Both the position numbers and the translations under genes were made by a program. Source: Sphyrna mokarran (lineage: Eukaryota). Taken from it: a stretch of DNA of 64,000 bases. Of the stretch, positions 20,402 through 61,769 are shown one piece after another (position 1 is the first letter of the stretch; every line of letters begins with the position of its first letter). The stretch lies in assembly GCA_024679065.1 (NCBI GenBank), contig JAGIQG010000011.1, positions 71,176,001-71,240,000 of the forward strand. Reading direction: 5' to 3'. A model generated the notes under the pieces. That model was not told the origin of the DNA, ran no database searches, and was given only the letters and a program-made list of their open reading frames with translations.

Positions 20402-20550
20402 CTTAGGCAGTCCTTTGGGACTGAGGATAGTTTGCTTCCATTCTGATTCGATGGGTTCTCAGATGGCTGATAAGTCCGATATGTGATCTACAGACTCTGC
20501 CACATGCAGTGCAGGTGGTGCTTGAAGGGTTGGGTAGATGGACGGTTGTT
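20402..20550 (-). mobile_element. RTE-clade LINE extreme 3' end
   Basis: Reverse translation CTACGRVCRSHIGLISHLRTH (C2H2-like RTE C-terminus) followed by ggactgcctaaga. Confidence 0.75.
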
Positions 20551-20879
20551 GTGCAAAAAAGGGATGACAGTTTGTATGAAGCAATTGTCTTCATGAGTAT
20601 GCCTTCTTTGTTGTTTATATGTGGTATAAAAACTAAAAGCAGTAAATCCAATTAGCTAGCTCATTGCTATCTACTTTTAAAAAATAAAGTACAAGATAGC
20701 AATACGGAAAAGAACATCTGGTATTTTATATATATAGAATCAGCATCTAAAATCATAAAGTTAAACATTGTTTACATGCATCTGGAAAGGAAAATGACAA
20801 GGTAACGTTTAGAGGGGAAGTGCTTTGTCATAAAATCTAAAATAATTATCACCTGATTTACAAGTGGAGTTTTTAAAAG

Positions 20880-25036: not shown

Positions 25037-25635
25037 ACCCTGCCACCAAGAGTTATCCTTTCAGTCCAGAATTCAGGTCAACACATTCCAACTAATGTTA
25101 AACAATGCAAACCTAACTTGAAGTTGGTACTCTGGCAGGTAGTCTTCATATGTGCAGACATTTTAATGCAAAAATAACTCTTGAGAGTCAAGTTATACAA
25201 AAGAATCATAGGAAAAATATGAAAAATGTGGAATATAAACACATGCGAAGAAATAATGAAAAGTTTTTTTTAATTTTTAACACTAATTGATCTTGAAATT
25301 GCTGTTTCTTATGTTACAAACACAGAACCTCCGTGTAAGATAAATGAGATGATGCCTCCATTAAAATAATAATCAAATTCTGCACAACTGTGCCCCAATG
25401 TCAGTCTTGGCACAGGAATAGAAAAGTTGTGTTTCCTCTTTGTTGGTGAATTTTCAGAGGTTGGAGAGGGAACATGCATGGGAGGAAACTAATTAATATG
25501 GGAAAAGTAGTAAAAGTTGATGAAGCCATCTCGACTTATTGTGTGTGGACATAGATAGATTGATAGATAGGATGATCTTCTAAGTGATGAATAACTAACC
25601 GTGCTTTCTATCAAAACATTCATCTGGAGGCTATT

Positions 25636-26775
25636 AGAACATAGATCATAGAACATAGAACAATACAGCACAAACAGGCCCTTTGGCCCACGAGTTGCGC
25701 CAATCACATCTACCAATCCACAGACCTATCTATAACCCCCAATCCTATTCTTTTCCATATACTCATCCAGAAGTCTTTTAAAAGACCCCAGTGAGTTTGC
25801 CTCAACAACCTCTGACGACAGTCGGTTCCATTCACTCACAACTCTCTGGGTGAAAAACCTACCCCTGACATGGCCTTTGTATTTGCTTCCCTGCACCTTA
25901 AATCTGTGTCCTCTCGTAGTGACCATTTCAGCTCAGGGAAATAGTCTCTGAGAGTCCACCCTATCTATCCCTCTCAATATTTTATAAACCTCTATCAGGT
26001 CTCCTCTCAACATACGTCTCTCAGAGAGAAGAGTCCCAGCTCCCTCAACCTATCTTCATGAGGCCTGCCTCCCAATCCAGGCAGCATCCTTGTAAATCTC
26101 CTCTGAACTCTCTCAATAGTCTCTACATCCTTCCTATAATGAGGCGACCAGAACTGCGCACAATACTCCAACTGGGGTCTGACAAGAGTCTTATAGAGCT
26201 GCATCATTAGCTCCTGACTCCTAAACTCTATTCCTCGATTAATGAAGGCCAGTACACCGTACGCCTTCTTGACCACTTCCTCCACCTGCGAGGCCGATTT
26301 AAGAGTCCTATGGACCCGGACCCCGAGATCCTTCTGCCCTACAACACAGCTAAGACTCCTACCCCTTATATTGTACTCCTTCATCCCATTATTCCTGCCA
26401 AAATGGACCACTACACATTTATCTGCGTTGAAGTCCATCTGCCACTTCTCCGCCCAGTCTTGCGTCCTGTCTATGTCCCACTGCAACTTTTGGCATCCCT
26501 CCAGACCATCCACAACACCACCGATCTTTGTATCGTCGGCGAACTTGCTAACCCATCCCTCCCCTTCCTCATCCAGGTCATTTATGAAAACGACAAACAG
26601 CAGGGGTCCCAGAACAGATCCCTGGGACACACCACTGGTTACCGACCTCCATGCAGAACAAGACCCATCCACAACCACTCTCTGCCTTCTGCCAGCAAGC
26701 CAGTTCTGGATCCACGAGGTCAAAGCCCCTTGGATCCCATGTCCTCTCACCTTCTCCAGAAGCCTTGCATGGGGG
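25636..26775 (-). mobile_element. 5'-truncated CR1 (HER1-like) LINE: RT C-terminal half, 3' UTR and microsatellite tail; inactive
   Basis: ORF 26007-26750 contains SGVSQGSVLGPLLFVVFINDL and KFADDTK RT motifs. There is a 1-nt frameshift near 26020 and a TGA before TRGHRFK...FFTQRVVSEWNRL. The tail is (ttctatg)n-like. Confidence 0.95.
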
Positions 26776-27308
26776 AAAGTAGCTTAACAGTTACTTAGTA
26801 GCTTAACAGTAACTAACAGATTAAAATAAATGAATTGAAAATGATCTTAACCAGCCACTTCCACTCTCGTGATACTCCCTGGTGTTTTTGCTTCTTTCTT
26901 ATGCTGTTATATACATTATAATTTTTCAAATTTCATCACGACTTCAGCTCGTGTTAAACAGGCTCCTCTAATTTGTGTCACTGTTCCCTTATTGTACAAC
27001 TGTTAAACTGATACTATTCAGCATATCATCAAAATTATCTGCCTCGCGGATAGTTATGTTTCCAACAAATATTTTAAAATGACGAACAAAAGATTAGGAG
27101 TTGAAGATTCATGGAGCCAAGGAGACTGCGAGAAGGGGTGAAACTGACAGATGGGACCAAATTCCTGTAATCCATTCCCAAGGTTTACAGGATTTCCTTT
27201 TTAATTGTGCAAACTGGTTCAGGTCATGTACATTCACTTTGTACTCGCAACCTGGCTGGCTCCATTGTGGACGAGGTGAAGCCAACACTGAGAAGGTCCA
27301 TTGACCTA

Positions 27309-37637: not shown

Positions 37638-37715
37638 GTTTGGATGCTGATGGCATTTACAGAGTAAGCGGCAATCTGGCTACAATACAGAAATTACGAT
37701 TTGTAGTGGACCATG
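37638..37715 (+). CDS. ARHGAP15: Internal 78-nt coding exon (phase 1-1) of a RhoGAP, ARHGAP9/12/15/27 family, arginine-finger segment
   Basis: Acceptor cttgttttgtcag, then GT TTG GAT GCT GAT GGC ATT TAC AGA GTA AGC GGC AAT CTG GCT ACA ATA CAG AAA TTA CGA TTT GTA GTG GAC CAT G, then donor gtgagt. Translation is (G)LDADGIYRVSGNLATIQKLRFVVDH. The exon call is firm. The paralogue assignment rests on YRVSGNLATIQKLRF and very long introns; ARHGAP27 or ARHGAP12 is not excluded. Confidence 0.85.
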
Positions 37716-55750: not shown

Positions 55751-56768
55751 TGTGTGTACTTTGGTGCTAAAACCAGGCACAGTGTTGACATATGCATTGT
55801 CATTTTTAAGATTAAATGAAATTGCTGACTCACAATGCACGCAGAATAATGATTAATGTCTGCTGGCATAAGAGGTGCTGACCAATCATCAGTGTTAGTA
55901 GAATTGTGGCTTCAGAAATAACCACATGAGTTCAAACCACAGACTGAGCAACAGATAGATTATAACTCAAGTACATGATTCAAAACCTACATTGTTCAGT
56001 TACGGGAATGCTGTAACTGGGAATATTATTCTCTTTTCAAGATTTTTTGTTCACTTGAAAATATTTTGAAAAGTTAAGCAAAATTATATGAAAATAAAAA
56101 ATGCTGGAAATACTTAACAGGTCTGGCAGCATCTTTGGAGAAAGAAACAGGATTAACATTCCAAATGGAATGGATAATGATTGTTGTGAAAGTTAACCAT
56201 CTCATAACGCTGACATGCAGAGTATAAGATCTGAAGTCCTTTGACCATTTGCAGTACGAAGTGCAACACGAATCTTTAAGTTAGAAAGGTCAGAAATTCT
56301 CTCTGCTTCTGATTGTATCATGAAACATCAGCTGAGCTTGCTCCAAAACTTAAACAAGACCAACAGATTTTTCCATAGTCCGTCCCTTGCCCACTACGAT
56401 TTCCATGGCAGGCCAATCTGGAAAATTTGTCCAAAGGCACTTCACAAAAGTACTATCAAGAAAAACCTGATACCAAGCCACATAAACAACAACAGCTTGT
56501 ATTTCTTTGACGTCTTTCATATAATAAAATGTCCCAAGGTTCTTTGTAGAGACATAATGAAACAAAATACGTTGGTAAGCCATACAAGGAAATATTGGGC
56601 AGATTTTGCTACTGAGGTAAGTTTTAAGGAATTCCTTAAACAAGGAAAGAGAACTGGACTGGAGAGAGGTTTGAAGAGGGAATTCCAGAGCTGAGGACTT
56701 GGGCAGCAAAATGCATAACTGCCAAATTGGAGCAATGAAAATCAGAGATATCCAAGAGGCCAGAATTA

Positions 56769-56876
56769 ACTTTAGTCACAAGTTGGCTTACATCAACACT
56801 GTAATGAAGTTACCGTAAAAATCTCCTAACTGCCACGCTCCTGCGCCTGTTCACATACACTGAGGGATGAATTTAG
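56769..56876 (-). mobile_element. 5'-truncated SINE tail with 8-bp TSD cagaatta
   Basis: Reverse complement of the 12350-12460 / 44460-44567 tail; cagaatta at 56761-56768 and 56877-56884. Confidence 0.8.
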
Positions 56877-57259
56877 CAGAATTAGAAGAATCAATGTATG
56901 TCAGAGGGCTTTAGGACTGGAGTAGATTACAAAGAATGGGATGAGAGGAATTTGATAACAGGATCAAACCTTTTTAAAATCAAGATACTGTTTAACCAGG
57001 AACAAGTTCGGGTCAGCGAGCAAAGAGCTGATAGATGAGTGTGATTTAGTGTGAATTAGGACAAAGACAACAGAACTTTGGATGACGACTGGTTTACAGA
57101 AGGTAAAATCTAGGAAGTCAGCAGGAGTGCATTGCAAACATCAAAACAATGAGAGCTGAGGCAGGGTTGGAGCCAAGCAGAATTACAGTGGTGGAAACAG
57201 ATGATCTATGCAAAGACAATAATATGTGGTTGGAAACTCACTTCAGGCTCAAATATGAT

Positions 57260-58447
57260 GGGCAGAATTTTCGCAAAAATATTCTAAATGCCTAATTCAC
57301 AGAAAAACTGGATAAATCTTGTTTCTTCAACAGGATTTACAAAATAAATTTCCCTCATCCTATGCATCACAGAGTGCTTTTATGTGAATCCTGCTAAAAA
57401 TCAAAAAGCCGGGCCTATATCTGCTGAAGAGGCCAGCAGCATAGCGCTGAGCAGGCCACTACACATGTGCTGATCTGTCAGAGTGGAGACTGGCACATGC
57501 ACAGTTGCCCCACATTGCTGGTCTTCTGATCGCTGGCCAGCTTCAAGACTCTGCATTGTTGCTCCTCCAACCACCACAGCCCTCAATCGCTGGCTTTCTG
57601 GATGCCTTTGAGCCAGCTCACCATCCCCCCCCATCACCCACACACCTTCACCGCCCTCCCCCACCAGCCCACCTCAATCTTCCCCCAGTAGTCCTGATCT
57701 TTCAACACCACCCCACACCCCAGCAGCCCAAACCTCCTCCCCTCCCTCATAGCTAACAGCCCCCCAGTAGGCTGACCCCCACCTCAATGGCCAGCCTTGA
57801 TCGCTGACCTCTCTCCCCCTGTCATTGATCCAAAATGCAAAGTTGCAGCAGGACCCCTCCCACACTCAACAATCTCCCTACCCCCAACCACAAGCCCTGC
57901 CCCCTATAGAACTCTCCCAGCCTCACCCTTTTGGCACTGCCTGATGTCCGGTGGGCAGTGCTAAGTTGCCCTCTGGGTATTTCCCCCTGGCCTGCTGGAC
58001 AATGTCAGGGGACCGGGTTGGCACTGCCATGCCGGCAATGCCCAGGGGTCATTCCTCCTTACCCCGACCTCCTGAGAGGCCTGCATGGTCTCCCTTCACT
58101 CCAGTGGGGGTCAGACAGCCAGCTTCCACTAATGGGGACTTGTCGTAAGGCCTGTAAGTGAAACACTCCTGACAGGATGGGGAGAATGGGGAGGAGTTGT
58201 CAGAGTGTGGGGGCAGGTGAGGAAACACTAGCAGGCCCAGGGCTGCTAATCCACTGTAAACACGATTAGCACGTTCTCATCAGCTTCACATTAATTTTTG
58301 ATGGGGAGCTGATAACGCCGAAAATCTGCCAGCTGGAGATACGTGGAGGGCGAGGTGCCCAGTGGGAAGCCCGCTACATAGACTCCACTTACGCATTTTT
58401 CCACCCACTGCACTGCTATCAATATAAAGGTTGAGAAAAATCTGTTT
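57260..58447 (+). mobile_element. ~1.2-kb Harbinger-type non-autonomous element
   Basis: gggcagaattttc ... gaaaaatctg termini; homologous to 45828-46774. Confidence 0.6.
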
Positions 58448-58714
58448 CAGCCTTACACTGTTGCCAGGGAGAGGGACTGTGCTGATTGCAAGGCAGTAGG
58501 GGTTTGTGTTGGAGGCAAAAGAAATGGCCCAGTCTTCCCTATATTCAAATGGATAAAATTTTGAGTCAACAGAGATGGCGCTGAGGTTAAACATGGTGTC
58601 ATGCAGTGCATGTGTTGAATGGAAATATAGATTTTGGTTGATTTTGCCAGCATGCATGACAAATGGTAAGTGGCCAAAGTCATCAATGGTAACTGTATGG
58701 GAATTGGGAGAAGA

Positions 58715-58915
58715 TGTAGAGATGCCGGCGTTGGACTGGGGTAGTAAGAACTCAGTAAGAATTTAGCAACACCAATTTTAAATCCAACCGATATATTTGA
58801 TAGTAAATTTGCGAGCTTTCGACACTCTGTGTCTTTGTCAGGCAAATGCAGCTCGCAAATTTACTATCAAATAAATCAGTTGGATTTAAAATTGGTGTTG
58901 CTAAATTCTTACTGA
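58715..58915. mobile_element. Palindromic Penelope-like pseudo-LTR fragment flanked by a 14-bp direct repeat
   Basis: gatgccggcgttggactgggg...agtaagaa...caacacc...tccaac motif, as recalled for shark Penelope ends. Inverted arms at 58752-58817 and 58850-58915. gaattgggagaaga at 58701-58714 and 58914-58927. Confidence 0.75.
58807..58847 (-). ncRNA. Minimal type I hammerhead ribozyme motif with G8>A core substitution
   Basis: AUUUGC-CUGACAA-A-GACAC-AGA-GUGUC-GAAA-GCUC-GCAAAU has a 6-bp stem I, a 5-bp stem II, palindromic AGCU in place of stem III and an NUH site (CUC). Confidence 0.75.
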
Positions 58916-59493
58916 ATTGGGAGAAGAGCCAGGGATTGCAATTCTCTGCCTACAATTAGATGCAAATAGAACCAGGTGATAGTAATTCCATCAAACTGTG
59001 TGACAGTAGTAGGATATTGAGGAGGAAGATGTGATCAACTATGAAAGACAGTCAAGAAGGACCAGGAGCACTATTTTGTTTTTGTCATGATCACAAATGA
59101 TGACTTTTGTGATTTTTTTTTATAAGAGTCATCTTGGCATTGTAATGGGCAGAAACCTCATAGAGGAATTCAGAAATGCAGTTCTGGGAAAGGTAGAAGG
59201 TAAACACAAATTCAATGACTTCTGGGACATTTGAAAAAGAATGAAAAATTGTAGACGTGCCATAGGCCATTATTGGAAAAATGCAGAGATCTTGAAAGGT
59301 TATGCAGAAGGTTACAAAAATATAAAGGCCCAAGCCCTGGAGGGATTTGAAAACAAGGATGGAAAGAATGTATACGATTGGTGATGTTCTGAATACAGGC
59401 ATTCTTAGAAGACTTTACTGTCACTTCCTTACTCTCTTCAAATTACAAAATATATAAATATATTACATAGAAATTAATTATTTAAACACCTTG

Positions 59494-60125
59494 TGTCATG
59501 TGAGTGTATTTTCAGAAAGTATTTTTTTAAATCAGCTTACAATTTAGCAATGCAGTTGGGGAATGGAGCTAAGCTGTGGCAGTCAGGCAATTGGGGTTTT
59601 TTTTAGGCTTTCAGTTTTGCTTTGGGAAGCAGTTTAGCAGCAAGCTAAGAAGCAGTCTCTTTCTATCCTCTCTGTTTGATTCTGCCTTAAAGAAGCCGTA
59701 TTTTGGGAAACAGATTCAATTACAACCTCTTCTAAGTCCTTTCACAAGGGATTTTCAGCATTCAATCCAGGAGGTGGAATTCCTGCAACAAGTGGTCATT
59801 AACTTCTGTTGTATTGTCTTTATTTTAGAGGGTTTTGTGTATTGGATGTTGGCTTTGGTTGGAACACATCAGAGAATTTTTTTAAGAGTTTATATAGAAT
59901 CATATGTTACTTGTTTGTAATTATTAAAAATTCTTGCTCAGTGTCTTACTATACATGTCAACAATATTCTTAATTAAACTTTTTCGATGAAAGCTCCTCA
60001 TGGATCAGTTGAAACACACCTGAAGTGAACCCTCTCCTGCTCATCCTAGCCAAATTCAATGTGAAATGTTACAGGTCAGGCAAGCTTCATAGGACACCTT
60101 GAAATATCCAATCTGACTTGTAACA
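59494..60125. mobile_element. Solo LTR (632 bp) with 4-bp TSD CTTG
   Basis: cttg|TGTCATG ... TGTAACA|cttg; no coding content. Confidence 0.7.
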
Positions 60126-61769
60126 CTTGTAATAAGTTCTTATCAATCATCAGATAGTTGTACTTCGGACTTAATAGCCTTTCATCTCAGCTCCTTCTCT
60201 CATTTTAAAACTATTGAAGTAATGCCTCACAGTTCTGAAGAACTGCAGAGGGTCTGAGGGGAAATATTGGGAAAAAGGAAGTAAGGACCTCCCCTGAAAT
60301 GCAGACAATCAGTTAACATTCTGATTTTAAAAAAGACAGATATTCTAATGGAAGTTGAATACCTTTTCCAATTCCAATTCCAGGTAACAAAGCATGCGTT
60401 CAAGAATTATATTGAAGCCAAACTGATGGTACTCCGATTCCAAAGGTTTAAAAGAGAAAAATTACCTCTGTCCCCTTATGTTACAATGAAATTTCACTTT
60501 TTAACAACATTTTAAGATTTCTATTGACAATTTTACTTTGGCTTAATTGACATACATTGCCATATGTTTTAGCTTAAAACATCTGTTAAGTTTGTTGCCC
60601 CCTTTCTCAGCATGATTTCAGTAAACTCCTTTATCTATATTCCCACTCCATGGCCCATTATCTTTTAAAACAAGAATGTGTTGATCCAAAATAGTAGAAG
60701 TTCTAACCCAGGAATACTGACTCCATAATTTCCTAATTACATTGTTGCAGTATTTGTAATATGTGATTTTGGACTTTCTCTATAATTATTTCCCATGCTT
60801 TACATCAGTAGCTGTAATATGTCTGTCTCATCCCTTTGCTATCCCTAACCGACTGAATCCCTTGACATCTTCGCTGATTTCTTCCAAATTCCATCCCCAT
60901 TCATCAGTTTCTCTTTTCAATTCTCTGTGGAGCCAGCAGCTTCTCATCTTTATCTCCTGGTGTCTCTTTGCTCTCCCCAATTTATTTGTGGTATCTCTGC
61001 TGAATTTCTTGTGCAATCCTGGAACATCTTTTGAATCTCTGAATTCCTGATCTCAGTCGGCTTGTCGTTAGTGACATGCCTGGATACTTTTGCAGTCTTC
61101 ACAAATGATCAATGCAGATCTATGAATTCTTCCATGTTGCCAACTTAAATTTGCTAGAATATGTGATGAGAAAATTATAGCTATGATCAAACATTAGTGT
61201 GAGTGGATCACATTACCATGCCCCTTACTTTTAAAAGTATTCTTCTAGGTCCAAATACTGGATCAGCTTTTCTGAACTTTCTTGTTTGTGTTTTTTTTTA
61301 GATTATTCAAATGTATGGCATTCTGGTCAAGCATTTTTTGCCAGGATCATTGAAATCTAGAGTCTATTTGTACCTATTTTGCAAGTGAAGAGAGTTGGCT
61401 GGAAATGAACAGTCATAAAAGAAACCTTTTCATGTCGCTACTATTTTGTTAGCTTTCCAGATTCTGGTGTCAATAATTTCCAAAGCCTGTTTATGATTGC
61501 AGATAGGGATGCACATCATTTTAGATCTTGCTAAGTAAAGCAGTGGAGGTTTTGAAATGTCACTTTGCTATGGGCATTATATTGATATCACCTGCTCTGG
61601 TTCAGGTCAGAAATTCCAAACTGTTTTATAGAGCCCACCTGGATCATAAGCTTTGTATTTTGATTTTGATTAAGATAAGCATGGTATATTTCACTTCAGG
61701 TATGATTCAAATGACCCACATGGGAGCTTTTATCAAACAAGGTTTATTTAAGTGCAGAGTTAGCATGTA

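Follow-up and report, generated by a model that had tools for sequence, protein, structure and literature searches.

A predicted-inactive hammerhead ribozyme in a 199-bp fold-back insertion of a Neptune-like Penelope element from the great hammerhead Sphyrna mokarran

Minimal type I hammerhead ribozymes (min-HHR) have been described in the pLTRs of metazoan Penelope-like elements (PLEs) (Cervera & De la Pena 2014, PMC4209133). The motif in S. mokarran shares with them the core boxes, an extra base between positions 9 and 10.1, a G10.1-C11.1 pair, a palindrome for helix III, hypervariable stems, and an occurrence mainly in solo truncated copies and opposite-strand pairs. In contrast, A8 stands here with C3, whereas in Schistosoma A8 is accompanied by a compensating U3, and the available portion of PMC4209133 contains no mention that we could find of an abundant uncompensated A8 allele. 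Insertions of EN+ PLEs (PMC3846280, PMC8557442) resemble the present locus in their inverted 5'-truncated pLTR, one-sided tail of 30-40 nt, TSD and junction microhomology. The present insertion differs in lacking ORF sequence (199 bp in all), in its 14-bp TSD and in carrying the core in one arm only.

Recently, the Poseidon element of Anolis was characterized biochemically (Frangieh et al. 2024, PMC11167929). As is likely in the shark family, two reverse transcription starts set the tail and the main template is uncut RNA, and the Poseidon hammerhead is dispensable for insertion in vitro. The shark family, which is known here from genomic allele counts, has a Neptune-type linker and a tail that ends at the ORF start, whereas that of Poseidon ends inside the ORF. 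Non-LTR retrozymes (bioRxiv 10.64898/2026.07.22.740005) also combine a pLTR-derived type I hammerhead with the absence of coding sequence. They are made of head-to-tail units with a hammerhead in each, unlike the present locus, which is a single inverted insertion with a TSD, one core and no head-to-tail tandem.

The motif, the fold-back layout of the insertion and the covariation of the stems are known biology. No publication on amplification of an uncompensated A8 was found in a literature that was mostly open access; the supplementary alignments of PMC4209133, which lie outside this scope, may show such variants. Likewise, no paper was found on CpG deamination in Penelope hammerheads, on inactivity of hammerhead G8A, on G8A with C3U, or on Neptune Penelope elements of sharks. 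The locus described below probably represents a fold-back stub left by a Neptune-like Penelope retroelement of high copy number, with a hammerhead predicted to be inactive and a G8A change that was likely already present on the copied RNA.

Structure of the insertion and its host intron

The locus lies in a 64,000-nucleotide stretch of contig JAGIQG010000011.1 (positions 71,176,001 to 71,240,000), referred to here as the window. Its features are as follows.

37638..37715, plus strand: ARHGAP15-like host exon, RhoGAP domain (E 6e-9)
58701..58714, plus strand: left copy of the TSD, 14 bp; the same 14-mer stands at 58914-58927
58715..58851, minus strand: main arm, consisting of the pLTR 3' end and one-sided tail of the Neptune-like Penelope element (90-98% identity to copies)
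58715..58753, minus strand: one-sided tail of about 35-39 nt (from the bimodal 3' ends of sampled arms and PMC11167929)
58807..58847, minus strand: minimal type I hammerhead motif (from sequence, folding, covariation and a descriptor match)
58842-58847 with 58807-58812, minus strand: hammerhead stem I, 6 bp
58829-58833 with 58821-58825, minus strand: hammerhead stem II, 5 bp
58836..58837, minus strand: C7-A8 replacing C7-G8 (TG on the plus strand)
58834, minus strand: extra A of the hammerhead
58814-58817, minus strand: palindrome AGCU
58813, minus strand: C17, after which the cut is predicted
58850..58913, plus strand: inverted, 5'-truncated second arm of 64 nt, without the core and with 2 differences from the main arm
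58914..58927, plus strand: right copy of the TSD, the same 14-mer as the left copy

Direct reading of the minus strand confirmed the minimal type I hammerhead. Its core consists of CUGA-C7-A8-A9 and one extra A, followed by GAAA and the AGCU palindrome. The motif, both stems, the GAAA box, the palindrome and the cut predicted after C58813 read just as the original prediction had them. Without flanks, stems I and II both fold (z -2.25), with pair probabilities of 0.98-1.0 for stem II and 0.59-1.0 for stem I. The proposed motif searches gave a divided answer: a relaxed minimal-hammerhead descriptor matched once in the window and in none of 100 shuffles, and an Rfam search of 56000-61000 (E<=10) returned no hammerhead, its only matches being of hairpin type and below cut-off. 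One of these, MIR7807 at the insertion, was dismissed, as the hairpin of the insertion itself accounts for its score. Owing to A8, the window copy lacks a canonical CUGANGA box, which with GAAA and a UH cut site characterizes minimal hammerheads of PLEs.

The insertion comprises 199 bp (58715-58913) between the TSD copies. The main arm holds the hammerhead core, 60 nt of pLTR and the tail, which we infer to lie between two reverse transcription start sites. The second arm, overlooked in the original prediction together with the TSD, repeats the main-arm sequence from the palindrome up to where the tail begins. Its first base lies 2-5 nt upstream of the predicted cut, a range due to the 3-nt microhomology at the junction. 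The whole insertion folds at -101 kcal/mol, with the 3' strand of stem I and the cut site both paired to the inverted arm; the probability of stem I falls to 0.0, against 0.78-0.99 in the main arm alone. In this predicted fold, stem I is thus blocked whatever base stands at position 8. The two arms differ at a non-CpG site (58793 vs 58874) that is polymorphic in the family, the same state occurring in L010, L011, L017 and L025; this mismatch hints at two templates. At loci L143 and L150, arms carry different stem II types.

The insertion sits within the 73.6-kb intron that follows the exon at 37638-37715; the next ARHGAP15-like exon in frame is at G000:C113:71287329 (E 2e-22). These exons, the first located by a splice-site scan, bear out the intronic and antisense placement proposed for the hammerhead, of which the host pre-mRNA carries only the antisense. 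A Pfam search of 248 frames of at least 58 aa gave no convincing host-gene match. A C2H2 zinc-finger match at 20406-20651 on the minus strand (E 0.005) was considered as a host exon and found unsupported; it is probably the end of a LINE ORF. Another minus-strand stretch, 25631-26783, is presumably a reverse transcriptase fragment of a CR1/L2-type LINE. The host sense strand at 58750-58918, within the ARHGAP15 intron, would fold to a hairpin with a stem of about 64-69 bp, possibly a substrate for ADAR or small-RNA processing.

C3-G8 is a confirmed core pair of the hammerhead (PMC3884650), and G8C abolished cleavage in a PLE hammerhead (PMC11167929). A8 breaks this pair and would be expected to abolish cleavage as well. 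The view that the window copy is probably inactive is thus supported by the broken C3-G8 pair and by the predicted blocking of stem I by the inverted arm. The insertion has a single core, and the nearest other core-bearing arm is about 86 kb away (154 kb searched). The copy is likely silent, given C3-A8, the modelled sequestration by its own inverted arm and the lack of a dimer partner within 86 kb, and it has no evident function.

The Penelope family and its hammerhead core

In the 2.77-Gb assembly, 37,944 matches to a downstream pLTR pattern were found genome-wide (about 38,000 arms). Longer copies carry upstream of the pLTR an ORF with RT, a CX4CX2C linker and GIY-YIG. The domain matches in these relatives (RVT_1, E 1e-4, below cut-off; GIY-YIG, E 1e-4, at cut-off) are absent from the window stub. 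The best 40 of 5,424 ORF candidates were 98-100% identical. Near-full-length pLTR-ORF-pLTR tandems occur at L041, L057 and L058; the 803-aa RT-EN frame of L057 follows one upstream stop. In full-length relatives the tail continues into the ORF start codon, as seen in L057, and the hammerhead lies inside the pLTR, sense to the ORF. The assignment to a Penelope-type minimal hammerhead, made from the motif, is borne out by this pLTR location and by the RT/GIY-YIG ORF. The features of EN+ PLEs are spread over both sources: the inverted pLTR layout, tail and TSD at the window, and RT then GIY-YIG in one ORF in the relatives. A CX2-5CxxC linker ahead of GIY-YIG defines the Neptune and Nematis clades (PMC8557442); the family is termed Neptune-like from the CX4CX2C linker read in translations, a motif common to Neptune and Nematis.

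The ends of 98 arms were read from the first 100 pattern matches on contig C1. Their 3' ends were bimodal (47 short, 42 tailed, 9 other). At the 5' side, 91 arms reached at least 7 nt upstream of the cut, 2 ended at -2 and 5 downstream; none of the 98 ended at the predicted cut. This pattern fits the two reverse transcription starts and the uncut template reported for the anole element (PMC11167929). At four loci (L035, L037, L040 and L059) the 3' pLTR is followed, within 1.3 kb, by a second piece of pLTR; that of L035 carries a different hammerhead variant and may reflect insertion close to a resident copy of the family. On C1, two pairs of insertions (L110/L117 and L108/L118) are identical and share their flanks, the members of a pair being about 0.8 Mb apart, which probably reflects a segmental duplication.

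Conservation of the core was surveyed in 81 arms sampled without regard to the hammerhead. G8 is the family state, as the original prediction had supposed (65/81), and the other core bases are found in 72-81 of the 81. Position 7 shows all four bases, the extra A after A9 occurs in 79/81 arms, the palindrome bases in 79-81, and the family has the G10.1-Y11.1 pair. The stems were then compared in an alignment of 71 rows, comprising the window and 70 of 74 distinct arms, four with deleted or partial cores having been dropped. That the stems covary was confirmed: 84% of cells were paired, with 35 double changes over 8 pairs. None of 500 shuffles scored as high, a contrast inflated by relatedness, and slid controls were 26-41% paired. 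Pairing holds for the three innermost pairs of stem II and for the two innermost of stem I; distal stem I is often unpaired (one pair in 45/71). In alignment A1 (columns 49-51), stem I positions 1.3-1.5 are hypervariable, with a fixed 5' strand and with pairing broken in some young types. The stem II of the window copy is a common variant (7/69 arms). It occurs with C7 or G7 and on several downstream haplotypes, and is thus no clean marker of the distinct subfamily that had been suggested.

Probable origin and inheritance of the G8A allele

The G8A change had been attributed to CpG deamination in the window copy, sister copies being possibly active. Exact 27-nt patterns with the window stem II, which take in only arms otherwise unchanged across 27 nt, were counted as 871 C7A8, 726 C7G8 and 89 T7G8, the mirror CpG product. 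A8 is therefore the majority allele with this stem II (871 vs 726), which does not support the view of a private lesion among intact sisters. Symmetric decay after insertion predicts equal numbers of C7A8 and T7G8, contrary to the tenfold rarity of the mirror product. The dependence on CpG was upheld. Among arms scorable at this site (69/95), A8 was found only after C7, in 10 of 39 C7 arms (one a deletion artefact) against none of 30 others, which points to deamination of source elements as the probable origin of A8. RT slippage and a deaminase acting independently of CpG were rejected as sources of G8A, since the 30 arms without C7 had no A8 and 30 arms with T11.1 had no A12. One G7A8 arm was seen.

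Inheritance was also estimated from paired arms, in a sample of 199 arms from C1, C2 and the first 42 Mb of C113. The 27 inverted pairs comprised 13 AA, 5 mixed and 9 GG, against 8.9, 13.2 and 4.9 expected if the arms were independent (p 0.0012). Gene conversion between arms could contribute partly to this concordance; in 8 of the 13 AA pairs the arms lie more than 600 bp apart. A mixture fit gave 46% A8 templates, a per-arm change rate of 22% and a probability of 0.79 that an A8 is inherited, for which the mirror count sets an upper bound of 0.90. Hence about 80-90% of A8 arms are likely inherited from the template. The mixed pairs point to a G-to-A change of about 20% per arm or to two-template insertions. 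The A8 of the window copy may be private to it, at 10-20%.

Ordinary CpG decay of the window copy after its insertion, with intact sisters, is thus an unlikely origin of A8. It would explain the restriction of A8 to C7 arms, the mixed pairs with their fitted per-arm rate, and the similar rate of G12A (12/62 C11.1 arms), which resembles a per-arm change. Against it, per-copy change accounts for only about 10-20% of A8 arms, a model without inheritance was rejected (LRT 11.1), the mirror product is scarce, and A8 is linked to C11.1, which was present in 46 of 50 A8 arms and 16 of 42 G8 arms (three duplicate rows removed).

A tree with all A8 rows in a single clade was rejected (p-AU 0.016, one row with a deletion being binned with G8), so that a single A8 master is without support. 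On other stem II types, A8 was again in excess, with 9 C7A8 (one a deletion artefact) against 1 C7-type T7G8 (p 0.02). A general excess of all damaging G-to-A changes did not hold up robustly once arms were matched. G1.1A and its mirror C17U are symmetric, and one neutral CpG shows about 10% G-to-A. A recombination hot spot at the cut, as expected from re-ligation of cut RNAs into circles, found no support, since linkage is maintained from one side to the other (V about 0.7 for distant sites).

Likely copying of A8 templates and retention of G8

A mechanism consistent with these observations would begin with the endonuclease cutting both target strands. Reverse transcription would then start at two sites about 35 nt apart, immediately upstream of the ORF start, and yield a main arm with the tail and an inverted arm without it, the two being joined via microhomology. 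The RNA template would be uncut at the hammerhead site, as in 91/98 sampled arms. G8, within a CpG, would frequently mutate to A in source elements by deamination. Since copying likely does not require cleavage, such A8 sources would go on seeding insertions; in vitro, insertion was undiminished with hammerhead mutants (PMC11167929). Over the long term the core would nevertheless be maintained, with G8 retained in the youngest arms by a CpG-free position 7.

The youngest arms do retain G8, with the CpG mostly gone at position 7. Arms without C7 are the younger ones, their nearest-neighbour distance being 1.5% against 3.3% (p 7e-4). Within the youngest arms (L032-L060 and L098-L164), C7 is changed to G, U or A and many C11.1 to U, which removes the CpGs at G8 and G12.

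Selection may also act at the level of the template. An uncuttable 3' hammerhead would keep the RNA whole, and G8A sources would repeatedly be over-represented among insertions. We hold this reading only tentatively. The priming sites lie downstream of the cut, so that cleavage in the 3' pLTR would part the RNA from its priming site and remove all upstream sequence. The recurrence of A8 on several stem II types and its lack of monophyly agree with such selection, and neutral CpGs of the tail lean the opposite way (TG 8 and 5, CA 3 and 2). However, G12A is equally common on A8 and G8 arms (8/46 vs 4/16), the symmetry of G1.1A with C17U shows no such bias, and G8 predominates in the young copies rich in ORF sequence (27 of the 29 rows of one clade, chosen as best ORF matches). 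The counts would fit equally with a hot spot biased to one strand or with a small number of prolific sources whose pLTRs are mosaic. It is a less likely possibility that dead G8A alleles are favoured as templates time and again, with long-lived lineages preserving G8 through loss of the mutable CpG.

That A8 is tolerated or complemented, cleavage proceeding with protein help or in trans through a G8 dimer partner, is improbable. The hammerhead of the anole element cleaves only with its own protein (PMC11167929), the dimer core and the cut site belong to different copies (PMC4209133), and the abundance of the allele would be understandable if it worked. Yet C3 is present in 69/69 arms and no compensating U3-A8 pair occurs in the 71 alignment rows, whereas the natural A8 variant has U3 (PMC4209133). 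At the window locus, moreover, the inverted arm would block stem I regardless of base 8.

Penelope hammerheads are dispensable for insertion in vitro. With about 38,000 arms, a conserved core and a predicted-dead allele copied hundreds of times, the shark family amounts to a natural experiment on their role in living cells, which allows the output, age and structure of G8 sources to be set against those of A8 sources. If dead templates are indeed favoured, the hammerhead would represent a short-term cost and a long-term benefit to the element, visible in the allele counts of one genome.
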